Origin: an uncultured bacterium
Lineage (GTDB): Bacteria > Armatimonadota > Hebobacteria > CAIYQO01
Length of the DNA: 64,000 nt
NCBI GenBank assembly: GCA_964638715.1
Contig: CAZWZF010000008.1
Location: 92,109-156,108 of the forward strand
Direction of reading: 5' to 3'
In this document: one piece after another, positions 1,505 to 40,639 of the stretch
Numbering within the stretch: the stretch's first letter is position 1
Layout of the letters: the number at the start of each line of letters is the position of its first letter
Notes under the pieces: generated by a model
The model's input: the letters and a program-made list of their open reading frames with translations, nothing else
The model's database searches: none
What the model was told of the DNA's origin: nothing
Made by a program: the position numbers and the translations under genes

Positions 1505-1638
1505 AAAACGATTACCGCGCTTTATGCCTTCGGCGCACGTGTGGAGTATTGACATCTGTTCATTCATGGAGCCATCCCCTTAAATGGATTTTTCATCGCA
1601 TGTTTTCTTTTGGTTTATCGTTCATTCCAATTCCCTGT

Positions 1639-4600
1639 TCACTTTCCCTCGGGTCCCAAGGCGTTCACCACACAGCGGAAGCCGGTCGGCGTCCAATCGC
1701 GAACATGCGGTGGCATGATCATGCGGGCGGCGGTTCGGCTGAAGCGCTCGTCGTAGAGACTGCATCCGCCGCGCAGCACTTTGTGACTGCCCTTCTGCGG
1801 GCCGGTCGGATTCTTGTGCGGTGCGGCCTTGTAATAATCGTAATCGTACCAGTCCGCAACCCATTCCCATACATTGCCCGCCATATCGAGCACGCCATAG
1901 GGGCTGGCTCCATTCGGGTAACTGCCCACCGGCCGGAAGCCGCGGTTGAACTTGTAGATCGTCTCCTCCATGCTTACGCACCTGGTCGAATCCCAATTAT
2001 TGCCCCACGGATACTCCCGCCCGTCCGTGCCGCGCGCGGCCTTCTCCCACTGCGCCTCGGTCGGCAAGGCCGCGCCCATGGCCTTGGCATAGGCGTCCGC
2101 CTCGTACCAGTTCATCTGCGCCGCGTAAACACCCTCTTCGCCCTTCGGGTCGGCATGCATGCCCTGGCCCCAAGTCGGCTCGAATGTCTTGCCGGCCTTG
2201 TCGCAGAACGCCTTGTACTGCGCCAGGGTCACCGGAGTCTTGTAGATCCAGTAGCCGTCAAGCTGCACCTTCTTCTGGGGACGCTCGTCACCGGCGCCTT
2301 TACCGGCCGGGCTACCGCGCAGGAACTCACCGGCCGGAACCCAGACCAACGCCGCGCCGTCGAGTTCATTGATGCCGGTAGTCGAGCCGGTCACCTTGAT
2401 CTTGGGCGGCACGAGTTTCGCCTCAGACTTGGTGGACTTATCGGACACCACCGTCGCTACAGCAACGCTCTTGGCCCTCAAAGTCTGCACCGGCAATTCA
2501 ATGGCCGTCGCTCCCTTGGCTGCGGGTGCACCGACCAGCTTCACTTCCAAATATTTCGCATCCACCACTGGCTTAATCTCTATCCCTTCCCAACCGCTGA
2601 CCGGGGTGGTCAACACGACCGCAACGCCATCGCCGCGATCGAGTTGAATCACTATCTCGCCGGCGGCGTTGGTCGCGATGGGCAGCTTCACCGATTCGGC
2701 GTCCGAGACGGCTATCACATCGTCGAATTTCTGATCCATATAGTCGGCGCCGGGCAGACGCTCTCCAACCTTGACGCCCTTGATGCCACCCGGCACGGCA
2801 TACTTGAGATCGAGCACCTTGGCGATGCCGCCGCCTTTGATCGCGACTTTGGCCACGGTCGAATCAGGCAGCGCCATCAGCCACCGCGTCGTGAAGCGGT
2901 TCGGGTTGTCCAGAACGCCGACGTATTTTCGTTCAATCTGCAATCCGGCATCGGTGACGCTTACAGTCCGGCGGAGATGTCGGCTCGTATCAAATCCGTA
3001 AAACGAGGGCGACAAAGTCAGGTCGGTTTCCAGCCGGTCCTTGGACGGGTTTTTAAACTCGCTCCACACCATCGACCAGTCCTTGTCCGCCGCGTGCGGG
3101 AGATCCTTCTCCGCCACATCCACCGGCAGCCAGATCTGCGAACTGATATTCCCCCTGAACTCGTCCCAATACCCGGCCATCCCACCTTGCACCGCCAGCA
3201 GTTCCTTGCCGCTCTTCCTATCCACCGCGCTCGTGATCTGGCCCCTGAGGTCGGGACAGACCGCCGCCGACACCGTCTTGCCCTCCAATTCGACAAGTGG
3301 TCCGCCGTTGTTGGCAACATACCAGGAGATGGTGCGCAGCACGCCGGCCTCGCCTCCGCCGCCCATAAACGCGGCTTGCTTGCCCCGTTCAAGACAACCA
3401 GGCACGCGCGGATCGGCACCGGCGACGAACCAGTTCTTGCCATCGCGCGGGTTCTTGATCGAGCCCCAGGGCTTGCCGCTGTAGGCGGCTGCATTGAGGT
3501 TGACCGCGTCGACGGAACTGCCCCGCGCCGCAATCAGGTTGGCCAGTCGCGTCGGGTCGCCCTCCTTCTCGGCGGCGGCCAGCGCCTTGTCCATGGCCTT
3601 GGTCATCTTAGCCAGAATAAATGGCGGAAACATCTTCACGCGCGTGGTCGTGGTCCACCCGCTCCAGCGCACCGCGCTGGGCAGGTGCCCGCTGTCTTTA
3701 TAAGCTGCCTGCGCGATTTTCAAATATTCCCAGACATGCGGTGCGGCACCTTTGCCGTAGTTGTCTTCCAAGAACTGGCGAATCAGTTTGTCGGCATCCT
3801 GGCTGGGATTCCAGGCCAATTTCATAAAGACCCAGGCGTAGAGGTTCGCCCAGTTGTCACCGCAAAGCTGCACATTCACGGCTGCAATGCCGCATTCCTG
3901 CCAGTATTTCACCATGTCACCCAGGTAAAAGATCGCCGGCCATTCCGGCTGGAACGGCACCCACTGCCAGGTGGTGGTACGACCGGGGGCAAGCTTGGGC
4001 CATTCGCGCAGTGCCCTGGCATAATCGCGATTTGCCGGGTTGTTCGTGATGGGGCCGACTTGGTCGCCAGCCGCATTCTCGCTCATCTCCCCGCAATGCA
4101 CATTAACCCAAAGGTTGGAGTGCGGTTTCAGGTCCCTGGGCGCCGTGATGTTGCCGAAATACGCGCAGGTGATCAGTTGCGCCTGCGGATGGGTGCGACC
4201 GAGGATCTCGAGCGTGCGGTTGAGCACCAAGATCAGAGGCGCGGCCTCGGACTGCTGCTCATAGACCAACTTACGGCAGGCCGGGCAGTGGCATGGCGTG
4301 TAACCATCGCCCATGCGCACCGAGAAGGGCAGCGACCAATCCACCTCGCCCCCGCGGGCCGCGGCGATGCGCGCCTGAATGTCGCGCTCCAAACCTTGGG
4401 CGAGAAAGGTGGGCAGATCGGGATTGGCACCACAGATGCCATAGTTCGGATCCGTCTGGCGTTTGCCGTCCGGGTCCATTGCATACAGATCCGGATGCTC
4501 GGCAAACAGCCCCTTCACCGTCACCTGGCCCGTCCGCTTGTCCTTGATGTCCTGCGGCGGCAGCAGGCCGTACATATTGAGATTCACACCCAGTGCGCCG

Positions 4601-5244
4601 CTGATTGTATCCGCCGGCTGCCCAACCCCGCGATTCTGGAGAATCCACGGATAACTGCCCGGCCAGTAGATGAACCCACGCTGGACAAAGGCCGGCTCCT
4701 GCAAATCGTCGCTCTTGTCGAGCGCCAGCGTCGCCCGCTTGGGCACCAACTCGTAGCCCGACCCGCCGTAGGAGAGACCTTGGGCCTTGTATGTGTAGAA
4801 GCGGCACCCGAGATGATCTTCGAGCAACCCATACACGGCGTAGCACAGACCCAGAGGCATGGCCGCGGTCAAGGTAATGCGATTGCCCGCGATCCTTATG
4901 CGATAGGCCTGTTTGCCCGTCGGCTTGTCACTGGCGCCCAGCACCTTGTCCACCAGTTCCAGGACGATGGCCGGTTTGTCACCCGCCTCCGCCGGCGTCG
5001 CCACCACCGGCAGTTCCGTACCGGTGATCTGCTGGAGATAATGGTTCAGGGTTTCGACAGGCGGTTTGATGAACTTAACTTCCCTGGAACCCGCCATTTC
5101 GGCCGGCACTTTGGTGTTGCCGTTGTGGACGATCACCGCCAGGGCATGTCCCTTCTCTACAATCGTGACCGCCGCGTGCGTTGCACCGCCCATTGCCAAA
5201 AGGAAAAGGAATACAAAAACTGCTTTTCCAATTTTATGCTTCAT
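1639..5244 (-). CDS. Large secreted fusion protein. An N-terminal ~900-aa DUF4838-like glycoside-hydrolase-like domain is joined to a C-terminal FGE-sulfatase (SUMF1/formylglycine-generating-enzyme fold) domain. GC-rich paralog of 37083..40622.
   Basis: N-terminal signal peptide MKHKIGKAVFVFLFLLAMGGATHAAV. C-terminus carries SUMF1-type motifs (GNVWEWVADWY, KVLRGGCSLYDE, GFRCV). Roughly two-thirds amino-acid identity by eye to ORF 37083..40622 along the full length. The opposite-strand ORF 1549..5439 is a low-complexity shadow. Confidence 0.8.
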   Translation of the reverse strand: MKHKIGKAVFVFLFLLAMGGATHAAVTIVEKGHALAVIVHNGNTKVPAEMAGSREVKFIKPPVETLNHYLQQITGTELPVVATPAEAGDKPAIVLELVDKVLGASDKPTGKQAYRIRIAGNRITLTAAMPLGLCYAVYGLLEDHLGCRFYTYKAQGLSYGGSGYELVPKRATLALDKSDDLQEPAFVQRGFIYWPGSYPWILQNRGVGQPADTISGALGVNLNMYGLLPPQDIKDKRTGQVTVKGLFAEHPDLYAMDPDGKRQTDPNYGICGANPDLPTFLAQGLERDIQARIAAARGGEVDWSLPFSVRMGDGYTPCHCPACRKLVYEQQSEAAPLILVLNRTLEILGRTHPQAQLITCAYFGNITAPRDLKPHSNLWVNVHCGEMSENAAGDQVGPITNNPANRDYARALREWPKLAPGRTTTWQWVPFQPEWPAIFYLGDMVKYWQECGIAAVNVQLCGDNWANLYAWVFMKLAWNPSQDADKLIRQFLEDNYGKGAAPHVWEYLKIAQAAYKDSGHLPSAVRWSGWTTTTRVKMFPPFILAKMTKAMDKALAAAEKEGDPTRLANLIAARGSSVDAVNLNAAAYSGKPWGSIKNPRDGKNWFVAGADPRVPGCLERGKQAAFMGGGGEAGVLRTISWYVANNGGPLVELEGKTVSAAVCPDLRGQITSAVDRKSGKELLAVQGGMAGYWDEFRGNISSQIWLPVDVAEKDLPHAADKDWSMVWSEFKNPSKDRLETDLTLSPSFYGFDTSRHLRRTVSVTDAGLQIERKYVGVLDNPNRFTTRWLMALPDSTVAKVAIKGGGIAKVLDLKYAVPGGIKGVKVGERLPGADYMDQKFDDVIAVSDAESVKLPIATNAAGEIVIQLDRGDGVAVVLTTPVSGWEGIEIKPVVDAKYLEVKLVGAPAAKGATAIELPVQTLRAKSVAVATVVSDKSTKSEAKLVPPKIKVTGSTTGINELDGAALVWVPAGEFLRGSPAGKGAGDERPQKKVQLDGYWIYKTPVTLAQYKAFCDKAGKTFEPTWGQGMHADPKGEEGVYAAQMNWYEADAYAKAMGAALPTEAQWEKAARGTDGREYPWGNNWDSTRCVSMEETIYKFNRGFRPVGSYPNGASPYGVLDMAGNVWEWVADWYDYDYYKAAPHKNPTGPQKGSHKVLRGGCSLYDERFSRTAARMIMPPHVRDWTPTGFRCVVNALGPEGK

Positions 5245-5492
5245 TTTCGATTCTCCCTTATTGTTGTTAAATTTTATTTCGCCGCCGCCCCAAACCGCCG
5301 GGTCATCCCATCGGTCATCATAGCGAAGACGCAGACAGACATGCCCAAACTCGGCACACCGAACGGCTTTCCGGTGTCGCAGTTCCTTGGTGAACGTGTC
5401 TCACGCGAGAAACATGGTTTCGGCGCGTCGAGTCCATAGATAAGTTGATTGCGTAACGCGAATGCATTATTTAACATGTTGTTATTTCCTTG

Positions 5493-7277
5493 TCACTTAA
5501 AACAAATTCCGTCGCCGTTCCCCAGGGAATGCCATTGGTCCGCCGTGAAAGGTCCTGGTTCAACGTGGGTTAACCCACCACCGAGTAGGTCCGACTTAAC
5601 ACAGTCAGGTCCATCGCCCTCGTGGTGAAATTGCAGTTGCAGCGTATCGGCGCTAAAAGTGGCCGCCATATTGACCTGCCGCGAGTCCTCATCCAGTCCG
5701 AAGAACGATTGCCAGGTCACGAGCTTCTGGTAATTCCCTGGTTCCGGATAGGCAATGTGGAAGCCGCAATTGTCGTTCGAGGAATCGAAGAGATTGCCAT
5801 TACTGACATTCTGCTCGCGCCGTCCGAATTCGATCCGCCGTGGACACCGGAATACGATGTTATTCAGAACTTGGTTAGCGCGGCACAGGGCGGTGCGCCC
5901 GTTGCTCTTTCGTTTTGCCTGACCGAGTGAGCACAGGATGGCGCCGCCTTCAGGGATCTCGCCAATCAGGTTGTGGGCGATCACGACGCACTCGTTGCAA
6001 TCCGCATGAATGCCCGTGCCTCGGATGTCCCAGATCACATTATGGTCGATCAGGTTCCTTTCGAAGTTCATTTCTGAATAGATAGCAGCTGTGACCGTTT
6101 CGATATTCACAAACACATTGCCGGAAATGCGGTTGTTGACATTGTCCACATCCAGCCAGATCCCGCCGGCATGTTTCAGGTTGCGGAACAGGTTATCACG
6201 GATCAGACAATTCTCCGCAAAATGGAATTTGATGCCGGCGCATTCATACATCCGCTCCAAGTCCAGATAGCCGATGAATTCAATTCTGTTGTTTTCGAAA
6301 AGACTCGACTTCACTCCCCGTGAGCCGGCAATGCCGCACACGCCGCAATTAACAATCTGATTTCGCCGGACGATGTGATATCCCATGCCCTCGGTTTCGG
6401 TGGCATCCCAGCTTTCGGCACCCAGACTGATACCAACGCCGTTTGCGCCGTCAACGGTGCAGTTTTCGATAATCCAGTGATGCCCGCGGCAAGTGCTGAG
6501 GCTACCCCGTTGAGGAATCGGCAGGCCGTCGGCGGCGTTTTGCAGAACCAACCCGGCCACCCGGATGAATCCCAACCCCATTTCGCGTGGTGCAAACGTC
6601 TGCTCGCGCACTGTGATTTCAAGCGGTTCGACCGGTGCCACGTCACCCGGCAGACGAAAGTGAATCCGCAAGCCCGGTTCCTCAACCCAAAATACACCGG
6701 CTTGGCTTGCCAGGTCGCAAGGGAAAGATACTTGCTTAAGCGGTTCGCCACGAAACCAGACACGGCCGCGACGAAGCAATGCGCGTTTCATCCAGTCCGG
6801 ATCCTGTCGATCGCCGAAATGAAACAGGTATTCGTAGGCATTACGGGCAAGGAAGGGATTATACGCGACAAACGCAGTCTCGGGAAGATCTGCCATCCAG
6901 ACCGTCACCTTTCCTTCTATCGCCGGGATATGCCAGCCTGCGCTTGGCTTCGCGGCCGGGAGGAATTCTTCCGTTGCTGTGATCACCACTCGCTCGTTCG
7001 GTGCCGCTTCGAAGGCAATCATACGATCGGGCCCGGTTCCGCCTCGTTGCAGGCACACCGTCTCGTGGTAAACGCCGGCATGAATCATAACTTTCTCACC
7101 AGGCTGCACGACCCGGCTGGCGGCACCAATGGTCTTGAAAGGCGCGTCCACCGTGCCCGAATTCCCATCCGCAGCCGCGTCATTGTCCTGGGCCACATGA
7201 AGGGTGCGAGCGTAAACAGTTTGGTCGTCCCAAAACGGGAAAAGGGTGCCATCAGGCAAACGGTCAAAGAACGTCAT
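5493..7277 (-). CDS. Right-handed parallel beta-helix repeat protein (pectate-lyase-fold; probable polysaccharide lyase/hydrolase). No signal peptide.
   Basis: Repeated Asn/Gly-rich beta-helix rungs (NNRISGNVFVNI, NCGVCGIAG, HNLIGEI, NNIVFRC). Sits in an operon with a heparinase-like gene. Confidence 0.55.
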   Translation of the reverse strand: MTFFDRLPDGTLFPFWDDQTVYARTLHVAQDNDAAADGNSGTVDAPFKTIGAASRVVQPGEKVMIHAGVYHETVCLQRGGTGPDRMIAFEAAPNERVVITATEEFLPAAKPSAGWHIPAIEGKVTVWMADLPETAFVAYNPFLARNAYEYLFHFGDRQDPDWMKRALLRRGRVWFRGEPLKQVSFPCDLASQAGVFWVEEPGLRIHFRLPGDVAPVEPLEITVREQTFAPREMGLGFIRVAGLVLQNAADGLPIPQRGSLSTCRGHHWIIENCTVDGANGVGISLGAESWDATETEGMGYHIVRRNQIVNCGVCGIAGSRGVKSSLFENNRIEFIGYLDLERMYECAGIKFHFAENCLIRDNLFRNLKHAGGIWLDVDNVNNRISGNVFVNIETVTAAIYSEMNFERNLIDHNVIWDIRGTGIHADCNECVVIAHNLIGEIPEGGAILCSLGQAKRKSNGRTALCRANQVLNNIVFRCPRRIEFGRREQNVSNGNLFDSSNDNCGFHIAYPEPGNYQKLVTWQSFFGLDEDSRQVNMAATFSADTLQLQFHHEGDGPDCVKSDLLGGGLTHVEPGPFTADQWHSLGNGDGICFK

Positions 7278-7806
7278 GCAGGTCTCCTTTCTGATTTAAC
7301 CAACGATTGGACGTTGCACGGTACATAGACTTCGTCAGATAAACGGCGGAATGAGGCATCAAACCCTTTTTGCTGGTCGGATACTGCCAGTTAGCGGCCG
7401 TACCTTCTAAAATCAAGCAGGAAAGATCCGTGGGTATCAAGCGGTGGTTGACAATAACGACAGAGTGACCGAACCAGCCGGTATCGACGCCGAACACGGA
7501 AGCCGTCAGCGGGACGGGCTCCGGCTCGGTGGACAGTTGCACGCGCCCAGTGCCCAGTGCCTGCGCGCTGACCTCCAGGATATAGAACGAATAACCGAGT
7601 GTCCCGTCCCATCCTGGTTGCAGGCGCGTCTCGAGCCCGGCCTGATTGACGATCCGCAAGGGCGCGGTCGATTTAAGAACCACCCTCGCCCACCCGGCTG
7701 CATGGAACTCGAACGTCAGGCCGCCGGCATCGTCAGCGGTAAGCACCGCACCATCCAAGCACCATGCCGCGTGGTCGGGTTGCAGGATAAATATCGGCAA
7801 AGTCAT
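7264..7806 (-). CDS. Hypothetical protein, translationally coupled between heparinase-like and beta-helix genes.
   Basis: The track ORF 7264..7863 begins inside the upstream gene. An internal ATG (MTLPIFILQPDH...) at 7806 overlaps the upstream stop as ATGA. No recognisable family. Confidence 0.4.
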   Translation of the reverse strand: MTLPIFILQPDHAAWCLDGAVLTADDAGGLTFEFHAAGWARVVLKSTAPLRIVNQAGLETRLQPGWDGTLGYSFYILEVSAQALGTGRVQLSTEPEPVPLTASVFGVDTGWFGHSVVIVNHRLIPTDLSCLILEGTAANWQYPTSKKGLMPHSAVYLTKSMYRATSNRWLNQKGDLHDVL

Positions 7807-10310: not shown

Positions 10311-10567
10311 CGTAATCCCCCTATGTGATAGGCCGCCCCGTTCTCCAGATTGAAGATCGGCCCCAGTTCGGCGTGCCGTTCTACCTTCATAACTTTACAG
10401 AGCGGACACGACATATAACACCCGGAGAAACGCACACCATTTTCCGCAAGTCGGTCAAGATTCGGTGTATGCACATCCCGATTGCCAAAAAATCCCATGC
10501 CAGCTTTAGATAATTGGTCTGCAATGATTATTAAAATATTCACATGCTTTCCTTCAAAACATATCAA
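10307..10567 (-). pseudogene. Truncated sulfatase remnant, N-terminal 86 aa only.
   Basis: NILIIIADQL...HTPNLDRLAENGVRFSGCY matches the sulfatase N-terminus. The CxPxR active-site stretch is degenerate (CYMSCPLCKV) and the frame stops. Followed by an AT-rich structured intergenic region. Confidence 0.55.
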
Positions 10568-10569
10568 TA

Positions 10570-10643
10570 GATGATGTTAGTATCACTGATTAAATATGTA
10601 TCAGAAATTCTAAAAGTGATTATTTTGTGAATACTAACATCAT
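10570..10643. repeat. Inverted repeat. ATGATGTTAGTATCAC is paired with GTGAATACTAACATCAT about 40 nt away, giving a potential ~17-bp-stem hairpin, MITE-like or sRNA-like.
   Basis: Read directly in the AT-rich spacer 10568-10826. Confidence 0.4.
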
Positions 10644-10756
10644 TTCATATCAGTCTTGTCCGGTAAATTACTGATATCAATTATACATTATTAACATTCA
10701 TCAATTCCACCAATACGACTTGCGGGACGAGTAACCATCCAAAGAACTGCAACTCT

Positions 10757-10779
10757 ATTTCGCGCAAGTTGCGCGAAAT
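10757..10779. promoter_or_regulatory. 23-nt palindrome ATTTCGCGCAA-G-TTGCGCGAAAT (11-bp arms). Candidate protein-binding site or tight hairpin.
   Basis: Read directly. Lies between the stop of 10827..13736 and the sulfatase remnant. No downstream T-run, so not a canonical intrinsic terminator. Confidence 0.4.
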
Positions 10780-10826
10780 CATAGGTAACTCCCCGCATCC
10801 GTATACAGATATCCATCATTGTCACC

Positions 10827-13736: not shown

Positions 13737-14236
13737 AATTTTTCTCCATTATAGATATGATGCAAACGGAGCATATCTTGTATAACCATTGCAGGAATGG
13801 TACCTATCAATTAAAGCTTGATAAAGTTACCATATCAGATTATTTAGTTAGACTGTATCAGCAAAAATAATTTTTACTGTACTTCAAGATATCCCAAAAT
13901 TCTAACTCATGCCCCGAATGAATTCCATGTTCTGGAATAACTCAAAATAGTTGTGGACCCATTTTCATAATGGTAATTATCGGTTACCATCTAAATAACG
14001 AATCCTGCCTTTTCCACATCTGTAGCCAAATGCCATTGCCATGGCTCAATTTTCCCTAAGCTACACAAAAAAAGACGTACCGTGCAAATCATTCCACGCA
14101 GGCATACAAAATGCTGAGGGAAATAGTTCTCGTAATGCGCACCCGGACGCTGTCACGCCCCAGACCTCAACCCGGTGCATTTCATGGGCGTGTTGCCGGT
14201 GAATGATGTTGTCGCGAATAATAGTGTCTTGCATCA

Positions 14237-18386: not shown

Positions 18387-18407
18387 AAGTGGACTCCTGA
18401 ATAACAG

Positions 18408-19865: not shown

Positions 19866-19880
19866 AAATATATCTCTTTT

Positions 19881-25490: not shown

Positions 25491-25491
25491 T

Positions 25492-28539: not shown

Positions 28540-28549
28540 ATTACTACCT

Positions 28550-29611: not shown

Positions 29612-29624
29612 ATTATCTCACTTT

Positions 29625-31151: not shown

Positions 31152-31163
31152 TATTAACCCCTT

Positions 31164-31391
31164 TTAAATAGCTGGTGGTGTTACCCATTCTTTATTTTTC
31201 TGGATTATAATGTTTTGTGATAATGCAAGCAAACGCGGTTCTAAGTCTGCAAAATCAAGTGTGTTTGGCTGAGTATCACCTTGTGCGCACATTGCCGCCA
31301 CGCAACCTGCCGGGCACCCGCCGCAGACTACGACATCATATTCACCGATTACGGGAATGCAGGACCGATAGTCGAGACTGTTAACGCTCAT
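31164..31391 (-). pseudogene. Chimeric remnant of a FAD-dependent oxidoreductase. The N-terminal ~30 aa (GEYDVVVCGGCPAG type) is joined directly to the C-terminal ~40 aa.
   Basis: Translation ...IPVIGEYDVVVCGGCPAGCVAAMCAQGDTQPNTLDFADLEPRLLALSQNIIIQKNKEWVTPPAI. The C-terminal part is near-identical to the end of ORF 33234..34544. Its DNA (31171-31302) is a ~130-nt direct repeat of 33231-33362. Confidence 0.6.
31171..31302. repeat. Direct repeat (~130 nt, about 90% identity by eye) of 33231-33362, the 3' end of the FAD-oxidoreductase gene.
   Basis: Both copies were aligned by eye. They bracket the GC-rich sulfatase plus gene fragments. Confidence 0.6.
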
Positions 31392-31409
31392 GACAATAAC
31401 TCCTTACAC

Positions 31410-32828: not shown

Positions 32829-33093
32829 GTTCTGTACTCCTATGCGTAACAGGGAAACCTTTGGGCAACCCCATGCCAGGATGCGGCGGCGATAAGTGAT
32901 AAACGGATTGCCTCACCTTGGGGAAATTAACCCCGACGTGCCATAGTTGCCCCTGATTTTCCACCATTAGCAACTCCAGTCCGGTGCGCCGTGCTGACAA
33001 CGCAGTGGCACAGCCTGCAGGCCCGCCACCGCAGACGTCGACATCATATTCACCTATAACCTGACTATTTTTATCTAACAGTTTGTATTTCAT
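32821..33093 (-). pseudogene. N-terminal fragment (about 60 aa of homology) of a FAD-dependent oxidoreductase, then diverges and stops.
   Basis: VIGEYDVDVCGGGPAGCATALSARRTGLELLMVENQGQL matches the N-terminus of ORF 57802..59250 (ARDIPVFGEYDVVVCGGGPAGCAAALSARRSGMSVLIIESQGQL). Confidence 0.55.
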
Positions 33094-33152
33094 TTTATTT
33101 ATGTGACAGTGTGATGCAAAAAATTACGTATCGAAAAAATTCGAAACGATCG

Positions 33153-33233
33153 CATCTTACCATTCTACCTTTTTACCAAAGTTTTTCTTAGCTACTTTAT
33201 TAAACTCAGTGCCTGCGGCATTAATAACCTCTT
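33153..33233 (-). pseudogene. 3'-end fragment of an RraA-like gene (encodes ...FGKKVEW*), duplicated from the 59186..59935 gene end.
   Basis: About 75 nt at roughly 90% identity by eye to 59181-59255. It lies immediately upstream of the FAD-oxidoreductase fragment, the same gene order as at 59.2 kb. Confidence 0.45.
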
Positions 33234-34544
33234 TTAAATATTTGGCGGTGTTACCCATTCTTTATTTTTGCGGATTATAATGTTTTGTGGCGGTGCAAGC
33301 AAACGTGGTTTAATGTCTGCAAAATCAAGGGTGTTTGGCTGAGTATCGCCTTGTGCGCACATCGAGCCTGCCACACCTGCCGACTGTCCAATTTGCGCCA
33401 GGATACATTGCACCCGGTATGATGCCATCGCCAGATGAGTACCACTCATATGCTTACCGACCACCATTATGCCGTCATAATCACGTGGAATAAGTGAACG
33501 ATATGGTATGCCATAAGGCTGCGGTTCCGGGAAATCTGACATTCCTTTTACCTTTTCGCTCCAAATATCCACACTGCGCTGAGTAACATGCACGCTGTCA
33601 TCCGGCACAATACCATTAAAGATATCTTCACTGGTAATTACCTTTTCTCCCATTATACGCCATTGTTCCCGCACCCCAAGTTTTGGAGCAAGATGAACCG
33701 CGTAACCATTTTTTCTCAATAAGATAATATCTTCACTCATCATATTCAGAGCTTCCCGTTGCGCGGTTGCCAATATTCCCGGTTCGCGGGTATCAGCACA
33801 TCGCACTTTGCATCCCCAATGCAGATAAGCACCAATATTTCGTTCTTTCAATCCTTCTATATCGCCTTTAGGCCAACCCTCACCGGATTCCAGTGGAAAA
33901 GAGAGCTTTAATTGACGGAAATCAAAATGCGGTACATTACCGATTTTCTGGCTAATATATTTCCACGTGCATAATTGTACATGGTCAGTGCGTTCCATAG
34001 GAGCAACACCTTCGCCAAAATCGTCCCTGCTGTCTTCGCCATAACGTCCATCCATACCAGAATTAACGCAAAGATTGCCGACACCGGTCGCTTCAATGGT
34101 GACTTTCGCTTTTATCTGCTGTTCTTTGCCGTCCGCACCACGCCAGATCGCGCCAGTCACCCGGCGGCGATTACCGGCATCTTCCACCATCAGCCTTTCT
34201 ACCCGTACCCCACAACGAACAGTGATATTTTTTTCTGCCGTCAGCATTCGTGACAGTACCATCAGATAATCACCGGGCATATACCAAAAGTCCCACCATC
34301 TACCCGGTTTGCGCTCTGTCAGCGGATAGTTCTTGTCCAACTCATTGCATAACTCGGTAATTACACCTGACCGTGGACCGCCATCAAGCATCAGAACATA
34401 TTGATCCATTGCCGCGCCGCCGGGAACCGCGTCCTCTTCCAATAAAATTACTGATGCTCCGGCACGCGCCGCGCCAATTGCCGCCGGCCAACCCGCAGCA
34501 CCGGCACCTATAACTAAAACATCTGTTTCGACTATTGTATGCAT
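33234..34544 (-). CDS. FAD-dependent oxidoreductase (GxGxxG Rossmann N-terminus; PF12831-like family).
   Basis: DVLVIGAGAAGWPAAIGAARAGASVILLEED (dinucleotide-binding motif). C-terminal ...AQIGQSAGVAGSMCAQG parallels ...TGQAAGTAAALS in the right-end paralogs. Confidence 0.8.
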   Translation of the reverse strand: MHTIVETDVLVIGAGAAGWPAAIGAARAGASVILLEEDAVPGGAAMDQYVLMLDGGPRSGVITELCNELDKNYPLTERKPGRWWDFWYMPGDYLMVLSRMLTAEKNITVRCGVRVERLMVEDAGNRRRVTGAIWRGADGKEQQIKAKVTIEATGVGNLCVNSGMDGRYGEDSRDDFGEGVAPMERTDHVQLCTWKYISQKIGNVPHFDFRQLKLSFPLESGEGWPKGDIEGLKERNIGAYLHWGCKVRCADTREPGILATAQREALNMMSEDIILLRKNGYAVHLAPKLGVREQWRIMGEKVITSEDIFNGIVPDDSVHVTQRSVDIWSEKVKGMSDFPEPQPYGIPYRSLIPRDYDGIMVVGKHMSGTHLAMASYRVQCILAQIGQSAGVAGSMCAQGDTQPNTLDFADIKPRLLAPPQNIIIRKNKEWVTPPNI

Positions 34545-34547
34545 AAA

Positions 34548-36863
34548 TTATTCCCTGAAAGTAAGTGGTGAAAAATCATTAAGGTTTGAATTAAATCCGG
34601 TATTTTTAGCATTCAGTTTCTGATCTTCCCGTATGCTATCTGTACCACGTGCATTATCACTCATGCGGTTGCGGGTTATTTGGCAGAACCATGTTACACC
34701 AGTGCCACAACGAATATTTTCGCCTAATGCTTTGAAAGGTACAAATACTTCCATCATCCAGCAACCAACCCCAACTTTGGTAGCAACCTTTAACCCCTCT
34801 GCGTTCCACGAATAGGACCCATTTTTAATATCTTGTACTGCACCATTTGCATTAATTACAAATTGTGCAAAATCACCAATATTTTTACCACTGGTATCCA
34901 GATATAATTCTATGCCATCATCCCAATATGTCAAACCATGATCATTAGTTTTTACATCACGTTTTAATTTATCAGGTGATGGTTCAGTCATTTTGAAGCT
35001 GAATGAAATTCCATCAAGAGTAAATACGGATCGTACTTCAGTGGAATATTTGCATGCGACTTCTTTTCCACCCTCATTTTTCATCAATATTACAGGTTCG
35101 GCTTTCTGCCATACAACATCATCAAGATTTCCGTCAATTACCGGGTTAGCGGCTACCTTAAAAGATTTTATAGTTCGCTGACCTTCACCTTCCATAACAG
35201 CGGCATATTCTTTAAAAAAATCATCAAAGGGATATGAAAAATATGCCAACCGTTTAGTTGCCAACGCATCAGGTGCAGCCTCTGTTTTCGCCTGCGCAAG
35301 AAGTTGTTTGAACTGTTCAACTACTGATTTAGGATATGAAATAGTATAAACAGATTTCGGTGCAAGCCTACCACCCGGCCAGCGGCTTTTTTCCCAACCA
35401 TCCATTTGCAGTTGTACTATTTTACGTACTGTATCGGCAGCAGGACCATACATTCGCTTGCAATATTCGTCAATTGAAGCATCAACATCAAAATCCGGAT
35501 TCCACAACACCTTGAGCCAGGTATAAAGCGATATATGGAATCGCGGCCATTCATCAGGATCACCACCATTAATGAATGTGCCAACAGTTTTATCTCGATT
35601 AGCCTGATAAAAATCTTTTAACACATGCGCGTAAATATATGGTGCCATGGTTCTGTCCGCAGGCCAACAGGAATAGTGCCAATCCTGCATTTTTTGCCCG
35701 GTAGCAGCAATCCAACTATCGATATTTGCCTGGTCAGCAGCAAGAATTGAAGGTTCTTTATACTGGGCAATACCGGGCATTCCACAAATCTGCATCTGCA
35801 CATTATTTGGCAACTTCACTCCTGCAGGTGCCATGGTATAATTCATATATGCTAGAAATATTATAGTCTTGCCGGGGTATTTTACTTTTACTTCATTCGC
35901 TAATTTCGTTGCAAAAGTAGTCATTATCAAAGATGCTGACGACAGGTCTCCACCTGCTTTGTTAAACAATTTTTTACATTCTTCACATTGGCAATTAACC
36001 CCAATATCCGGTGGTGACAAGGTAATTGCGTCACCGGCAATGAATGATGCATTTTTCTTCCCCGAATAATGGTCATCTATATTTTCCATAAATGTTTGCA
36101 GTGTTTTAGGGTTTGAATAACAATACATTGAAAAATCACGGGTACCATCAGGATTAAGCTGGAATATTTCTGGTCTATTTGCACGATACTCAGCATTGCG
36201 CGACCATTCCATAGGTTGGTGAACGCGCAAGTCAACAGGCCAGGAATTACCGGCGCGGAGTGTCATCAATAATGGTCGCAGTTCCTGATTCGCACCACCG
36301 ATTGGACCGGATGGAACAAATGGAGGAAAATACTGGCGTTTGCGAAATACCGGAGCATCAGTATACCAAAGCGGATCTATCACCAATTTATCTGTTTTTA
36401 TTATAGAACGACCATCACGATCAGTTGGCCAATACCAGCGTACCCCGACAACTCGTTCCAGAAAATCATAAACTCCCCAGATCGATCCGACAATAAAAAC
36501 ACCATCTGCCGTTGTTTTCAATTCAAAACCTTCGGGTGGCAATCCGGCAGATACCAGCCCGACAGTCTTTGCTTCCGGGCAATCCCCTAATATTATAGCA
36601 GGAAATATAACTTTTCCCTGCAATATCGGCAGAATCACACCCGTAGTTTCTTTAATGCAGCTTTGCATTTCATTAACAGTCTGATTAAATTCTGGAGACA
36701 TAACGCAAATAGAGAAACTGGATTTACCATCATCAGTCAACACTAATGGTTTATGTACCGGTTTCATCGTAACAGGCATCAAATCATTCCCTTTTACAGC
36801 AGCGTGACAAAATGTCACAAGACCAACCATCAACAAAATTATAAACTTTTGCATCATAAACAT
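34548..36863 (-). CDS. Secreted DUF4838-like domain protein with C-terminal CBM9-like carbohydrate-binding module.
   Basis: Signal peptide MFMMQKFIILLMVGLVTFCHAAV. N-domain resembles the N-domains of 1639..5244 and 37083..40622 (VGVRWYWP, CQCEECKKL vs CHCPACRKL). C-terminus VIDGNLDDVVWQKAEP...GIELYLDTSGKN is CBM9-like. Confidence 0.65.
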   Translation of the reverse strand: MFMMQKFIILLMVGLVTFCHAAVKGNDLMPVTMKPVHKPLVLTDDGKSSFSICVMSPEFNQTVNEMQSCIKETTGVILPILQGKVIFPAIILGDCPEAKTVGLVSAGLPPEGFELKTTADGVFIVGSIWGVYDFLERVVGVRWYWPTDRDGRSIIKTDKLVIDPLWYTDAPVFRKRQYFPPFVPSGPIGGANQELRPLLMTLRAGNSWPVDLRVHQPMEWSRNAEYRANRPEIFQLNPDGTRDFSMYCYSNPKTLQTFMENIDDHYSGKKNASFIAGDAITLSPPDIGVNCQCEECKKLFNKAGGDLSSASLIMTTFATKLANEVKVKYPGKTIIFLAYMNYTMAPAGVKLPNNVQMQICGMPGIAQYKEPSILAADQANIDSWIAATGQKMQDWHYSCWPADRTMAPYIYAHVLKDFYQANRDKTVGTFINGGDPDEWPRFHISLYTWLKVLWNPDFDVDASIDEYCKRMYGPAADTVRKIVQLQMDGWEKSRWPGGRLAPKSVYTISYPKSVVEQFKQLLAQAKTEAAPDALATKRLAYFSYPFDDFFKEYAAVMEGEGQRTIKSFKVAANPVIDGNLDDVVWQKAEPVILMKNEGGKEVACKYSTEVRSVFTLDGISFSFKMTEPSPDKLKRDVKTNDHGLTYWDDGIELYLDTSGKNIGDFAQFVINANGAVQDIKNGSYSWNAEGLKVATKVGVGCWMMEVFVPFKALGENIRCGTGVTWFCQITRNRMSDNARGTDSIREDQKLNAKNTGFNSNLNDFSPLTFRE

Positions 36864-36920
36864 GTTATGTTTCCTTTTAATACCTATTTCAATATTTAAA
36901 ACCAGGAAATTACTAATTCG

Positions 36921-36992
36921 TAGAGGCTTTTGCTAAACCTTGATGGGACAGACACCTTCCTGGCTTCGCCATTCGGTGTCAGCCCCTGATTT
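36921..36992. repeat. ~72-nt conserved intergenic element, copy A, with internal dyad GACACC...GGTGTC. Candidate structured RNA, REP/MITE-like element or bidirectional terminator.
   Basis: tagaggcttttgctaaaccttgatgggacagacaccttcctggcttcgccattcggtgtcagcccctgattt versus copy B at 52287-52358, about 85% identical by eye. Confidence 0.5.
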
Positions 36993-37046
36993 ATACTCGA
37001 TTTTTAATTTAGATCAATAAAAAATTAGGTTTTACAACAGCCTGCG

Positions 37047-37072
37047 TAATTCGTAATTCCTAATTCGTAATT
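37047..37072. repeat. Tandem direct repeat TAATTCGTAATT-cc-TAATTCGTAATT immediately downstream of the 37083 stop. A third TAATTCGTA lies at 36914.
   Basis: Read directly. Lies in the promoter region of 34548..36863. Confidence 0.35.
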
Positions 37073-37082
37073 AATAATTCCT

Positions 37083-40000
37083 TCACTTCGGTCCCAGCGC
37101 GTTAACCACACACCGGAAACCTGTTGGTGTCCAGTCTCGCACATGTGGCGGATTAATAAACCTGGCGGCGGTACGACTTAATCTTTCATCATACAGGGAA
37201 CATCCGCCACGCAATACTTTGTGACTGCCAATTGCCGGACCGGTCGGATTTTTTGATGGTGATGATTTATAATATTCATAACCATACCAATCTGCTACCC
37301 ATTCCCATACGTTGCCGGCCATATCCATCACGCCATAAGGACTGGCCCCCTGCGGGTAACTTCCTACCGGACGGAAACCGGATGAAAACTTATACAAAGT
37401 CTCTTCCATGGATACACATTTTGTAGAATCCCATTTGTTGCCCCATGGATATTCACGACCATCAGTACCACGGGCAGCTTTTTCCCATTGTGCCTCGGTG
37501 GGTAACGCGGCGCCAACCGCTTTCGCGTAAGTATCGGCTTCATACCAACTCATCTGCACCGCATACGCACCTTCATCACCTTTGGGGTCAGCATACATTC
37601 CCTGTCCCCAAGTTGGAGTAAATGTTTTACCGGTTGCGTCGCAATATTTCTTGTATTGCGCGACTGTTACCGGATATTTATACATCCAGTAACCATCCAA
37701 ATAAATTTTTCGCTGTGGTCGTTCATCACCAGCACCTTTGCCATTGGGTGAACCACGCAGAAAATCACCCGCAGGTATCCAGATTAATTCCGCGCCATCC
37801 AATTCATTAACTGCCGTTGTTGTACTGGTAATTTTTATTTTAGGCGCAAATAACACTGCAGTCGTTTCAACAGTTGCGGTAGTAACCTGTTTTGCAACTG
37901 GAACAGTTTTGGCACTCAATACCTGAACCGGTAAATTTACTTCCGTCGCATCTTTTGCCGCAGAGGTGCCAATTAATGTTATCTGTAAATATGCTTTATC
38001 AACTACCGGTTTTAATTCGACAGCGTCCCAGCCATTAGCCGAAGTTGTAATAACCGCAGCAACACCATCACCACGGTCAAGTTGAATAACGATATCTCCA
38101 GTGGAGTTGGCAGTTATAGGAATATTGACCGGTTCCGCGTCAGAAACAGCAATAACATCATCAAACTTCTGGTCCATCGCATCCAAACCGGGTAATCTTT
38201 CTCCAGCTTTCATTCCTTTTATTCCGCCCGGTACAGCATATTGCAAGTCCAGCAACTTTGTGATGCCACCGCCGGTCACTGCGACTTTCGCAACCTTCGG
38301 GTTTGGCAACGCGAGCATCCATCGGGTAGTAAATCGGTTTGTTACAGCCAGACTGCCATTATATTTTCGATCAATCTGCATTCCAGTATCAGTAGTGCTT
38401 ACTACTCTATTCAGGTGATTTTTAGTATCAAATCCATAAAAAGGCTGGGAAAGGGTAAGGTCTGTTTCTAATTTATCTTTATTCGGATTTTGGAATTCAC
38501 TCCACACTGACGACCAGTCTTTATCAGAAATATTAGGGTATTTCAAATCATTTTTTGCTACATCTGCCGGCAGCCATATCATTGAACTAATTCTGGCAAA
38601 CTGGTCAAGATATCCGGCCTGTCCACCCTGAACCGCAAGTAATTCTTTCCCACTTTTTTTATCTATCGCGCTGGTGACTTGTCCTTTCAAATCAGGACAT
38701 ACCGCCACTGACATTGATTTTCCATCCAGTTCCACTACTGGTCCGCCGTTATTGGCAACATACCATGATATGGTGCGCAATACCCCGGCTTCACCGCCGC
38801 CATTCATGAAAGCGGCTTTTTTGGCACGGTCAAGACAACCAGGCACATTCGGGTCAGCACCGGCAACATACCATTTTTTATTATCTGCCGCATATTTCAC
38901 CATTCCCCAAGGATTACCGCTGTAAGACGCCGCATTTAGCGTAACCGCATCCAAAGAGCTTCCCCGCGCCTCTATCATATTGGCAAGCAAACGTTTATCT
39001 TCTTCTTTTTCTGCCGCTGCCAGTGCTTTATCCATTGCCACTGTCATTTTGGCTAATATAGTTGGTGAAAACATCTTCACGCGTGTTGTCGTGGTCCATC
39101 CGCTCCAGCGTACCGCACTGGGAACATGACCGCTGTCAGCATAGGCAGCCTGCGCAAGTTTCAGATACTCCCAAACATAAGGTGCTGCACCTTTACCATA
39201 ATTATCATCCAGGAACTGGCGAATAAGTTTATCAGCATCCTGGTCGGGGTTCCAGGCGAGTTTTAAATAAACCCATGAATACAGCCATTGCCAGTTATCA
39301 CTGCATAACTGCGGATTTGTGCCATAAATTCCGCATTCTTTCCAATATTTCATAATGTCGCTGAGGTAGAAAATCGCTGGCCATTCCGGTTGGTAAGGAA
39401 CCCAATGCCAGGTGGTTACCCGTCCGGGAGCGATTTTTGGCCATTCTTTCAGTGCTTTCGCGTAATCACGGTTTGCCGGGTTATTGGTAATCGGTCCTAC
39501 CTGGTCACCCGCCATATTCTGCGATCGCGCGCTTGATACCACATTAATCCACAGATTTTTATTGGGTTTAATAGTCTTTGGCGCATCAAGAGAGTCAAAA
39601 TATGCGAATGTGATTACCTGCTGGTCCGGGTCGGTCTTTTCTAAATCTTCCAACGCGCGGTTAAGCATCAGTATTAACGGTGCCGCCTCAGATTGTTCAT
39701 CATGCACTAACTTGCGGCAATTATCGCACATACACCCGGTAAAACCATCACCCTGGGCAGCAGGAATCGGCATTGCCGGATCAAATTTTGCCCCCATCTG
39801 TTTTTTTCTTATAGCAATCTGTTTTCGCAATGCATCCGCCAAGAATTTTGGCAAATCCGGATTTGTTCCGCATACACCCATACTCCATGGCGTCTCGCGC
39901 TGACCGGCTTTATTTAAAGGGTAAAAATCAGGATGTTCAGCAAACAAACCTTTTTCAGTAATATTTCCTTTGCCATCTTTCTTATCCTGTGGCGGCAATA

Positions 40001-40622
40001 AATCATAAAAATTATGTCCGGCGCCAAGATCACCGCTTACAGTATTGGCAGGATAACCCGCTCCACGATTCTGCAATATCCACGGGTAACTACCCATCCA
40101 GAAGATAAAACCGCGTTGAGCAAATGCAGGTTGCTGAAAATCATCAACATTTTTTATTGACAATGTCGTTTGTTTTGGCACTACTTCATGCCCCGGACCC
40201 CCGTATGACAATCCTTTCGCCTTAAAAGTGTAAAAACGACAGCCAAGATGATCTTCCAATAAACCCCATACCGCATATTGTATTCCAAGGTCTGATAAGG
40301 CCGAGAGAATTAATTTATCGCCATCAGTTCTGATACGATAGGCCTGTTTCCCCTTCGCGTCATCACTTGCACCGGGTAGTTTATCAACTTTTTCTATAAT
40401 GATAACTGCTTTATCCCGCAATTCGTCAGTCATCGATGCTGCCAATGGTAATTCAGCACCGGTAATCTGCTTCAGATATGACTGCAGATTTTTGGCAGGC
40501 TGCAAAAAACCATTGTGAACAATAGTCGCCTTAGTCACACCATTTTCAGCAAGCGTAATTGCCTGGGTGCTGATTACAAGGCAAAGTAACAGAAATACTA
40601 CCATCGCTTTACAAGTTGACAT
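37083..40622 (-). CDS. Large secreted DUF4838-like::FGE-sulfatase-domain fusion protein. AT-rich paralog of 1639..5244.
   Basis: Signal peptide MSTCKAMVVFLLLCLVISTQA. Collinear similarity to 1639..5244, including the C-terminal SUMF1-type motifs GNVWEWVADWY, RGGCSLYDERLSRTAAR and GFRCVVNALGP. LacI-type palindrome 18 nt upstream of the start. Confidence 0.8.
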   Translation of the reverse strand: MSTCKAMVVFLLLCLVISTQAITLAENGVTKATIVHNGFLQPAKNLQSYLKQITGAELPLAASMTDELRDKAVIIIEKVDKLPGASDDAKGKQAYRIRTDGDKLILSALSDLGIQYAVWGLLEDHLGCRFYTFKAKGLSYGGPGHEVVPKQTTLSIKNVDDFQQPAFAQRGFIFWMGSYPWILQNRGAGYPANTVSGDLGAGHNFYDLLPPQDKKDGKGNITEKGLFAEHPDFYPLNKAGQRETPWSMGVCGTNPDLPKFLADALRKQIAIRKKQMGAKFDPAMPIPAAQGDGFTGCMCDNCRKLVHDEQSEAAPLILMLNRALEDLEKTDPDQQVITFAYFDSLDAPKTIKPNKNLWINVVSSARSQNMAGDQVGPITNNPANRDYAKALKEWPKIAPGRVTTWHWVPYQPEWPAIFYLSDIMKYWKECGIYGTNPQLCSDNWQWLYSWVYLKLAWNPDQDADKLIRQFLDDNYGKGAAPYVWEYLKLAQAAYADSGHVPSAVRWSGWTTTTRVKMFSPTILAKMTVAMDKALAAAEKEEDKRLLANMIEARGSSLDAVTLNAASYSGNPWGMVKYAADNKKWYVAGADPNVPGCLDRAKKAAFMNGGGEAGVLRTISWYVANNGGPVVELDGKSMSVAVCPDLKGQVTSAIDKKSGKELLAVQGGQAGYLDQFARISSMIWLPADVAKNDLKYPNISDKDWSSVWSEFQNPNKDKLETDLTLSQPFYGFDTKNHLNRVVSTTDTGMQIDRKYNGSLAVTNRFTTRWMLALPNPKVAKVAVTGGGITKLLDLQYAVPGGIKGMKAGERLPGLDAMDQKFDDVIAVSDAEPVNIPITANSTGDIVIQLDRGDGVAAVITTSANGWDAVELKPVVDKAYLQITLIGTSAAKDATEVNLPVQVLSAKTVPVAKQVTTATVETTAVLFAPKIKITSTTTAVNELDGAELIWIPAGDFLRGSPNGKGAGDERPQRKIYLDGYWMYKYPVTVAQYKKYCDATGKTFTPTWGQGMYADPKGDEGAYAVQMSWYEADTYAKAVGAALPTEAQWEKAARGTDGREYPWGNKWDSTKCVSMEETLYKFSSGFRPVGSYPQGASPYGVMDMAGNVWEWVADWYGYEYYKSSPSKNPTGPAIGSHKVLRGGCSLYDERLSRTAARFINPPHVRDWTPTGFRCVVNALGPK

Positions 40623-40639
40623 CTTGAAACCCCTTATTA

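Follow-up and report, generated by a model that had tools for sequence, protein, structure and literature searches.

The window, a stretch of 64,000 nucleotides from an uncultured bacterium, carries two related genes for long secreted proteins, which we refer to as paralogs A and B. Both open reading frames are present on the minus strand at the positions listed in Table 1, and BLASTP aligned their products end to end (812/1196 identities, 68%, E = 0), which bears out a preliminary description of the locus that had taken them for collinear paralogs. The exact A protein occurs on six contigs (ENA and JGI assemblies) and the exact B protein on ten. Export of both proteins had likewise been proposed, and their N-termini indeed read as Sec signal peptides by eye. 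Homologs of A and B are found in Planctomycetota, Verrucomicrobiota, Lentisphaerota and Kiritimatiellota (PVC bacteria); two family copies per locus are common. Protein C, the product of a third DUF4838 gene, shares 21% identity with B across the N-domain and barrel, and the adjacency of B and C is kept in relatives.

Table 1 Features of the window discussed in the text (minus, reverse strand; aa, residues of the encoded protein).
Feature	Positions	Strand	Remarks
GC-rich block	1..18386		GC 0.58; GC3 0.63-0.79; A, β-helix protein, heparinase II/III-like protein, LamG protein, GH29 fucosidase, two sulfatases
Paralog A	1639..5244	minus	DUF4838 glycosidase-like, secreted, 1201 aa, C-terminal Cys-less FGE-fold domain; GC3 0.763
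FGE-sulfatase (PF03781) fold domain of A	1669..2355	minus	aa 964-1192; Pfam 165.6 bits
Loop of A	1723..1773	minus	RGGCSLYDERFSRTAAR, in place of the copper-binding Cys-x4-Cys loop of true FGEs
DUF4838 (PF16126) barrel of A	3718..4758	minus	aa 163-509; Pfam 110.4 bits, E = 1.3e-31
Putative active-site segment of A	4273..4314	minus	MGDGYTPCHCPACR; family-invariant Asp (putative acid/base) and CxCxxC part of the Cys4 cluster
Signal peptide of A	5173..5244	minus	MKHKIGKAVFVFLFLLAMGGATHA; read by eye
Insert relative to L096	31313..33208		GC-rich sulfatase gene at 31410-32828, GC3 0.71
AT-rich backbone block	33234..53878		GC 0.43; GC3 0.27-0.42; B, C, DUF5054, GH31, four pseudopilin-like genes, LacI and AraC regulators, FAD oxidoreductases
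Protein C	34548..36863	minus	third DUF4838 protein, 771 aa; CBM9-like domain where A and B have the FGE fold
Paralog B	37083..40622	minus	1179 aa, architecture as paralog A; GC3 0.392
FGE-fold domain of B	37107..37793	minus	aa 944-1172; Pfam 166 bits
Loop of B	37161..37211	minus	RGGCSLYDERLSRTAAR, without the Cys pair
DUF4838 barrel of B	39159..40190	minus	aa 145-488; Pfam 127.7 bits; GH115 and GH20-like fold
Putative active-site segment of B	39714..39755	minus	QGDGFTGCMCDNCR; invariant D292 and C297/C299/C302 of the Cys4 cluster, fourth Cys C251
Signal peptide of B	40560..40622	minus	MSTCKAMVVFLLLCLVISTQA; read by eye; low-confidence helix at residues 1-20 of the AF2 model

From the N- to the C-terminus, the proteins of this family consist of a Sec signal peptide, a GH20b-like α/β domain, a (β/α)8 DUF4838 barrel, a helical bundle, a galactose-mutarotase-like β-sandwich and a domain with the C-type-lectin-like fold of formylglycine-generating enzymes (FGEs), a domain that essentially all full-length members possess. 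The AF2 model of B has a pLDDT of 92.7 and a pTM of 0.90 over the chain of 1179 residues, and its only low-confidence linker is a short one. Among solved structures, the N-terminal 900 residues match best to GH115 α-glucuronidases (4zmh, 7pxq, 4c90), which show the same domain order. This relationship is one of fold only, as the identity is no higher than 10-15% and GH115 comprises inverting α-glucuronidases that lack an FGE-fold domain.

DUF4838 has meanwhile been given a function, as the barrel that carries out catalysis in the β-N-acetylglucosaminidase families GH163 and GH185, distant kin of GH20, as represented by the endo-β-N-acetylglucosaminidase BT1035 of B. thetaiotaomicron (GH163) and the 6-sulfo-β-GlcNAcase Sp_0475 of S. 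pneumoniae (GH185) (PMC10570127). Both paralogs score above the Pfam cut-off for PF16126 (26.6 bits), and the (β/α)8 barrel, the GH20b-like N-domain and the GH20/GH115-like fold are all present. At the C-terminal ends of the barrel strands lie the invariant residues R170, D292 and Y341 together with the nearly invariant H203, H230 and W407 (B numbering). The order of R170, H203, H230, D292 and Y341 resembles that of Q174, H227, D309 and Y436 in Sp_0475, a putative correspondence based on position. Sp_0475, BT1035 and our paralogs appear to have in common a conserved Asp and Tyr at the C-terminal barrel face, and all belong to loci for the degradation of sulfated or complex glycans. In contrast to the two characterized enzymes, A and B reach about 1200 residues by an added helical bundle, a mutarotase-like sandwich and the FGE-fold domain, carry a Cys4 cluster adjoining the putative catalytic Asp and possess signal peptides (as read by eye), while Sp_0475 is cytoplasmic. 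The family may form a separate DUF4838 subfamily. The likely substrate of the barrel is a glycan with HexNAc, probably acidic or sulfated, which it would hydrolyze periplasmically or extracellularly, and judging from their positions the invariant D292 and Y341 of B would serve in catalysis at the C-terminal barrel face. A closer look at A revealed substitutions at sites that are otherwise invariant or nearly so (H→L at H203, Q→M at Q290 and a V→H exchange), each shared with one other member at most; within the family, A is alone in having Met for the Gln that precedes the GDG motif (Q290). The active-site face of A appears remodelled, which suggests a specificity other than that of B.

The C-terminal domain clearly belongs to the FGE fold. 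With about 166 bits it exceeds the PF03781 cut-off of 23.3 bits, it is 25-30% identical to FGEs (EC 1.8.3.7) such as human SUMF1 and the enzymes of S. coelicolor (2q17/6muj) and T. curvata (5nxl/6s07), with a Foldseek E-value of about 1e-16, and it retains the PWGN, GNVWEW, RGG and GFR motifs. The preliminary description had noted that the catalytic Cys pair was missing. In a HMMER alignment with the two solved bacterial FGEs, whose loops read ..LCHDSYC.. and ..LCHESYC.., the copper-binding cysteines are replaced by Tyr and Ser, followed by a deletion of three residues, and the loop after RGG in our paralogs reads RGGCSLYDER[F/L]SRTAAR. Nor has the pair moved elsewhere in this loop: a C-x(3-6)-C arrangement was found in 0 of 122 family members examined. 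Across these members the first Cys position is taken by Tyr, Trp or Phe and the second by Ser, Ala, Cys or Asn, within the conserved motif RGGxS[LM][YWF]DERFSRxAAR, and the DER-containing loop is nearly invariant. As the Cu(I)-binding C-x4-C is absent, this domain would be unable to produce formylglycine. Yet no other part of the protein is as conserved: columns with at least 90% conservation make up 35% of the domain vs 19% of the barrel, A and B are 83% identical here vs 64% in the barrel, and dN/dS is 0.037 here vs 0.07 over the full length. Being under stronger constraint than the rest of the protein, the domain must be functional.

The closest structures to the domain are fold members other than FGEs, i.e., PvdO, TvpA, ToxD, PorK and pFGE. 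Outside the family, the closest sequences (about 36-47% identity) come from Ser/Thr kinases, a TIR protein and a trypsin-like peptidase of Anaerolineae, Nitrospirota, Poribacteria and others. Like our paralogs, these proteins carry the domain as a C-terminal module without the Cys pair (RGGSW...R...R...GFR), but their partner domains differ and they lack the DER motif. The FGE-fold domain of A and B is a member of the large modular Cys-less branch of PF03781. Characterized members of this branch bind ligands or partners. Among the Cys-less FGE-fold proteins pFGE/SUMF2, PvdO, PorK/GldK, the DGR variable protein TvpA, ToxD, CalU17 and the T6SS immunity protein Tsi3, none is fused to a glycoside hydrolase, unlike A and B, and the NCBIfam scores of our paralogs far below the cut-offs for PvdO, GldK and EgtB place them outside these families. 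Taken together, the tail domain of A and B is probably a binding module rather than a maturase; this tightly conserved module would hold or position a ligand, be it the glycan or a partner protein.

All five sulfatases of the window are of the Cys-type with a CxPxR or CxAxR motif. It had been stated that they mostly lack signal peptides, and in fact four carry none and the fifth has a Tat-type leader. A bacterial FGE is expected in the cytoplasm, together with its newly made, unfolded sulfatase substrates. A and B are predicted to be exported, fused to a glycosidase and provided with Sec-type signals (by eye) that four of the five local sulfatases lack. At five sampled homologue loci, no sulfatase gene was found within about 10 kb; genes of the PL8, heparinase II/III-like, GH31, GH38 and NAGPA types are present at homologue loci. 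A and B are likely secreted glycosidases of PVC-bacterial glycan-degradation loci with a non-maturase, probably ligand-binding FGE-fold module, where substrate and ligand are inferred.

Different roles of the FGE-fold domain are conceivable. It might belong to the hydrolase proper and serve structure or catalysis there, for instance as a cleft wall or an oligomerization surface, so that the family would represent a five-domain enzyme. Its conservation, its universality among full-length members and its fixed packing are atypical of a loosely tethered CBM and fit an integral domain equally well, as do the high pTM with a single short linker, the low dN/dS, the near-invariant DER loop and the use of C-terminal domains in a fixed architecture by GH115 enzymes. 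However, the domain is most closely related to modules appended to unrelated proteins, and other DUF4838 enzymes employ other C-terminal modules, CBM9-like in C and an F5/F8 domain in BT1035 (PMC10570127), which leads us to view an integral role as a possible but doubtful explanation. The richness of the window in Cys-type sulfatases, one of them Tat-exported, could instead point to a pFGE/SUMF2-like or unconventional maturase module that recognizes the CxPxR peptide and docks exported sulfatases or matures them independently of cysteines. We consider this very improbable, given that the Cys pair occurs in none of the 122 family members, four of five local sulfatases are cytoplasmic, the five sampled homologue loci have no sulfatase within about 10 kb and the closest sequences are kinase, TIR and peptidase modules rather than FGEs. 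To our knowledge, no Cys-independent formylglycine chemistry has been described for the FGE fold. A more speculative proposal, to which we give little credence, holds that the domain keeps the peptide groove of FGE and pFGE and docks exported formylglycine-type sulfatases or another partner onto the glycosidase, yielding an extracellular desulfation-hydrolysis complex in PVC bacteria with the DER loop serving recognition in place of copper chemistry; in a milder version, it would found a new FGE-fold CBM family for sulfated or acidic glycans. We know of no CBM family with an FGE fold, and a literature search returned none. A CBM role might be suggested by position, since the CBM9-like domain of C and the non-catalytic F5/F8 module of BT1035 likewise follow the barrel (PMC10570127).

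The two paralogs differ strongly in base composition, with a GC3 of 0.763 for A and 0.392 for B. This contrast, pointed out earlier as a property of the pair, is real but not particular to these genes, as each matches its own multi-gene block. GC3 of the window genes is bimodal (0.27-0.46 and 0.57-0.79), and composition changes at gene boundaries within tens of bases, with at least six switches in 64 kb. The region from about 33217 to 43808 (FAD oxidoreductase to GH31) is collinear with the relative L096 at 80-88% DNA identity. L096 is uniformly AT-rich, contains a B orthologue of 92% identity in unchanged gene order and lacks the GC-rich sulfatase cassette of the window. The sulfatase gene of this insert lies between remnants of two FAD-oxidoreductase genes and between the copies of a direct repeat of 174 nt (31139-31312 and 33209-33382, 83% identical). 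In neighbor-joining (NJ) trees A and B fall into one subclade, but their grouping as sisters received a bootstrap of 9% and essentially none after Dayhoff-6 recoding. Moreover, B is closer to the GC-rich homologs P0002 and P0003 (72%) than to A (68%), and in other genomes the two paralogs of a pair agree in composition (0.83/0.85 and 0.77/0.86). A donor of A was not found among its homologs, of which the closest is only 70% identical, and the NJ bootstraps give A no firm placement. These data sustain the earlier proposal of a xenologous origin or different residence times: from a uniformly AT-rich L096 lacking one GC-rich insert and from A not being the sister of B, B appears to be a resident gene, whereas A probably came in with a GC-rich block taken up from elsewhere. 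B would form part of the AT-rich resident backbone, and lateral acquisition of the block around A is the probable scenario judging from composition and the one other insertion.

Alternatively, A and B could be duplicates that arose within the genome, with a regional mutational bias generating the GC3 gap in place. The frequent presence of two copies per locus, the shared subclade and the absence of mobile-element genes and tRNA at the block borders would agree with this. The missing sister relationship, the greater proximity of B to GC-rich homologs, the matching composition of paralog pairs elsewhere, the abrupt flips at gene boundaries and the scarred borders of the cassette missing from L096 nevertheless make such an origin improbable. 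That the mosaic and the co-occurrence of A and B reflect a chimeric assembly of a GC-rich and an AT-rich organism is hardly credible, even though the window derives from metagenome assemblies and switches composition so often. The A-B spacing is 35,378 bp in both a SPAdes-style contig (ERZ4201038 NODE_45, 170.5 kb) and a MEGAHIT-style one (ERZ27300010 k141_1011298, 94 kb), a match of 14.8 kb to an NCBI MAG contig reaches 99.99%, the junctions lie inside tight operon-like gene arrays on one strand, and the gene-fusion scars at one junction are internally consistent. We favor, with a probability of roughly 0.6, the combined reading that A and B are divergent members of a conserved, secreted, glycosidase-type family of about 1200 residues in PVC bacteria, with a Cys-less FGE module that would hold or position a ligand, B being resident and A probably laterally acquired.

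Our result is a correction of annotation and not a new kind of system, and it is less surprising in that FGE-fold domains without the cysteines were well known as a class beforehand. The JGI labels of many A/B family proteins include "sulfatase modifying factor 1". Gene counts for PF03781 have been taken as "putative FGEs", with a stated paradox for the strictly anaerobic, sulfatase-rich Kiritimatiellales (PMC6388578). Part of this paradox disappears with an entire conserved family in which the Cys pair is missing and the domain is joined to a glycosidase, and maturase capacity should not be inferred from a Pfam PF03781 match alone. Furthermore, studies of DUF4838 glycosidases have been confined to GH163 and GH185, and the family represents an uncharacterized but well-modelled branch of them. 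With its unusually conserved accessory domain and the Cys4 cluster beside the putative catalytic Asp, it is a sensible choice in the search for enzymes that act on sulfated or acidic HexNAc glycans. In the locus itself, GC-rich and AT-rich forms of shared gene families are mixed at the level of cassettes, with recombination scars still visible.

The minus strand of the window encodes two proteins, A and B, in which a barrel of the DUF4838 type, known from the glycosidase families GH163 and GH185, is joined to a C-terminal domain with the fold of the formylglycine-generating enzyme (FGE). A preliminary description had taken them for collinear paralogs, about two-thirds identical and both secreted, whose FGE domain lacks the closely spaced copper-binding cysteine pair and is more likely something other than a sulfatase maturase. 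Both the observation and this interpretation hold. The two open reading frames are present and align end to end with 68% identity (812/1196, E = 0), and DUF4838 (PF16126) and FGE-sulfatase (PF03781) clearly exceed the Pfam cut-offs in A and in B. As judged from sequence reading, both N-termini are of the Sec signal-peptide type; residues 1-20 of B are predicted as a low-confidence helix within a confident AF2 model (pLDDT 92.7, pTM 0.90). The five sulfatases of the window, which had been described as mostly devoid of signal peptides, start directly with the catalytic domain in four cases and with a Tat-like leader in one; all five are of the Cys-type. A 1296-aa plus-strand ORF (1549-5439(+)), antisense to A and covering most of it, is interpreted as a shadow of that GC-rich gene, because the Pfam matches and homologues all lie in the minus-strand frame.

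Coordinates of the paralogs, of domains within B (residue numbers preceded by B), and of conserved segments, gene remnants and composition blocks in the window
Feature	Position	Strand	Size or composition	Basis
Paralog A	1639-5244	-	1201 aa	
Paralog B	37083-40622	-	1179 aa	
Signal peptide	B 1-21			model and sequence
GH20b-like α/β domain	B 22-145			Pfam search and model
Helical bundle	B 501-625			model
Linker	B 911-940			model
FGE fold	B 941-1179			fold search
CxCxxC segment beside putative catalytic Asp, in B	39714-39755			family alignment
CxCxxC segment beside putative catalytic Asp, in A	4273-4314			family alignment
FAD-oxidoreductase remnant, N-terminal fragment	32821-33093	-	90 aa	
FAD-oxidoreductase remnant, N-terminal FAD motif fused to last 42 codons	31164-31391	-	75 aa	
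Block	1-18386		GC 0.58	
Block	18408-31151		GC 0.45	
Block	31313-33208		GC 0.56	
Block	33234-53878		GC 0.43	
Block	53879-59250		GC 0.57	

In HMMER alignments to the characterised, solved FGEs of S. coelicolor and T. curvata, both positions of the copper-binding Cys are substituted, one by Tyr and the other by Ser, and a 3-residue deletion follows in the A/B loop (query RGGCSLYDERFS---RTAAR opposite FGE RGGSYLCHDSYCNRYRVAAR). Throughout the alignment of 122 A/B-type homologues (hereafter the family), the first Cys position is occupied by Y/W/F and the second by S/A/C/N, while a Cys directly after RGG is found in only 59/122 members. Catalytic cysteines at shifted positions are ruled out, as C-x(3-6)-C in the post-RGG loop occurs in 0/122 sequences. 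This loop is not decayed: D1145, R1147, R1150 and R1154 are retained in 108-121 of the 122 sequences and E1146 in 96. Outside the family, the nearest sequences (~36-47% identity) are modules found at the C-terminus of Ser/Thr kinases, of a TIR protein and of a trypsin-like peptidase; they likewise lack the Cys pair. We conclude that the FGE domain of A and B is not an FGE. It belongs to a superfamily with 144,550 representatives at E <= 0.001, in which the domain is often found in 2-11 repeats per protein. No NCBIfam model passed; EgtB, SenA, GldK and PvdO gave sub-threshold scores only, and membership of these families was dropped. A precedent for a Cys-less FGE fold is the immunity protein Tsi3, for which an enzymatic function is unlikely, as its authors infer (bioRxiv 10.1101/2021.05.21.445229).

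Within the family, conservation peaks in the FGE-fold domain. Columns conserved at 90% or above make up 35% of it versus 19% of the barrel, identity between A and B is 83% versus 64%, and dN/dS between B and a 92%-identical orthologue is 0.037 for the domain versus 0.070 for the whole protein. This strong conservation together with the low dN/dS marks the domain as functional and under constraint. Such constraint fits binding of a specific ligand or partner, and it suits equally well the main alternative, in which the domain is an integral part of the enzyme. Both components, the DUF4838 glycosidase barrel and the Cys-less FGE-fold module, are of known kinds; the conserved combination of the two is uncharacterised and did not appear in the literature searched, where looking for FGE-sulfatase domains together with glycoside hydrolases gave nothing relevant. 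As many family proteins are labelled FGE or SUMF1 by JGI, the practical value lies in annotation correction, and the family is a reasonable target for enzymology.

When the N-terminal part of A (948 aa) was searched against PDB sequences, nothing matched. In the B model, the family-invariant residues R170, D292 and Y341 and the nearly invariant W407 are predicted at the C-terminal ends of barrel strands, the canonical active-site face of the barrel, and D292 is the putative catalytic Asp. A nearly invariant Cys4 cluster (C251, C297, C299 and C302 of B; C...CxCxxC) follows directly after D292 and is probably a structural metal site; the DUF4838 paper PMC10570127 makes no mention of it. Both the D292-type Asp and the cluster are retained in a third DUF4838 protein, C (34548-36863(-), 771 aa), which is only 21% identical to B and has a CBM9-like C-terminus in place of the FGE fold. 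C lies immediately downstream of B, and the B-C pairing is kept in relatives (L096, 15.6-kb JGI contig).

Paralog A deviates at 12 positions that are conserved at 90% or above (B at 5, family median 6). Residue 222 is changed from His, present in 120/120 other members, to Leu. Residue 311, directly before the invariant GDG and next to the putative catalytic Asp, is changed from Gln to Met, and residue 383 from Val to His; at each, 119/120 others keep the norm. The latter change is followed by Ser to Cys and Ser to Gly, turning VSS into HCG at a barrel-strand end (383-385). All of these changes are seen in A alone or in A and one other member, and the positions equivalent to B Q290 and V362-S364 are modelled on the active-site face. 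The exact A protein recurs on several contigs. Taken from the sequence, these substitutions probably reflect altered specificity or reduced activity in A.

The contrast in composition that had been described was borne out by per-gene GC3 values of 0.763 for A and 0.392 for B. GC3 is bimodal across the window (0.27-0.46 and 0.57-0.79), and each change from one class to the other falls at a gene boundary along a single strand. Sulfatases, the five FAD_oxidored (PF12831) genes, URO-D-like genes and the DUF4838-FGE genes are represented in both classes. Loci of relatives are compositionally homogeneous, and in other genomes the two members of a paralog pair agree in GC3. That the mosaic is an assembly chimera is ruled out by two assemblies, from different assemblers as judged from contig names, with an identical A-B spacing of 35,378 bp. 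An NCBI MAG contig (GCA_037131695.1) matches the window over 14.8 kb at 99.99%.

Insertion of GC-rich DNA into an AT-rich backbone is seen directly elsewhere in the window. Locus L096, which carries a B orthologue, runs collinear to the window, is 80-88% identical to it in DNA and is uniformly AT-rich (GC3 0.34-0.43). There, an FAD oxidoreductase directly adjoins a 508-aa sulfatase, where the window has ~1.9 kb extra holding the GC-rich sulfatase 31410-32828 (GC3 0.71). A 174-nt direct repeat (83% identical) and two FAD-oxidoreductase remnants flank the insert (31139-33382), which resembles a scar left when paralogous cassettes recombined. The insert border (33153-33225) and the 5' end (59182-59254) of the FAD_oxidored gene 57802-59250 share a 73-nt repeat with 92% identity. 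A GC-rich segment of 68 nt with the FAD-binding motif recurs in six copies (31291, 32999, 53739, 55166, 56578 and 59078), at which paralogs might recombine. A tRNA scan for integration sites found none.

The phylogeny against homologues does not recover A and B as sisters: their grouping has 9% NJ bootstrap and essentially none after Dayhoff-6 recoding, and neither the Kimura NJ nor the Dayhoff-6 NJ tree settles the position of A. B shares more identity with GC-rich homologues (72%) than with A (68%). The proposal of a xenologous origin or differing residence times thus stands, given this lack of sisterhood, the homogeneous relatives and the GC-rich insertion. We infer that A was probably acquired laterally. 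No donor was found: a second protein search for one gave nothing above 70% identity except fragments of A itself, and a metagenome scan with the junction sulfatase at the A-block border (18408-19865) gave matches of <=59% identity only, uninformative on absence of the A-block.

The full architecture comprises >130 clusters at 90% identity, or roughly 15-20 at 50%, from MAGs labelled Planctomycetota, Verrucomicrobiota, Lentisphaerales, Kiritimatiellae and Tepidisphaerales. Neighbouring genes vary yet are glycan-degrading (PL8, heparinase II/III-like lyases, GH31, GH38, NAGPA, LamG and β-helix proteins), accompanied by pseudopilin-like N_methyl proteins and LacI or GntR regulators. In the five homologue loci sampled from beyond this lineage, no sulfatase lies within ~10 kb; the sulfatase link is therefore local to this organism's lineage and not family-wide. 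Homologue loci L103 (6349-13546) and L104 (1672-13663) also hold two divergent copies each, in tandem in the first (51% identical) and separated by a single gene in the second (54%). GC3 matches within each pair, and carrying two copies per locus may have functional meaning in this family.

Four tandem prepilin-type (pseudopilin-like) N_methyl genes with conserved 139-nt 5' ends (45394-49950(-)) have a LacI regulator upstream and GH31 downstream; in L093 and L103, family members are flanked by single N_methyl genes. Large HEAT_2-annotated proteins (1400-1500 aa) recur beside family members in L090, L092 and L104. A secreted 1869-aa protein (19881-25490(-)), with only a sub-threshold CBM9 match in Pfam, adjoins the PL8 lyase. 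Finally, a 78-aa sulfatase N-terminal fragment (~10307-10543(-)), predicted as a gene on the ENA contig, is apparently a truncated sulfatase remnant between the heparinase-like and LamG genes and is followed by an AT-rich spacer (10311-10826).
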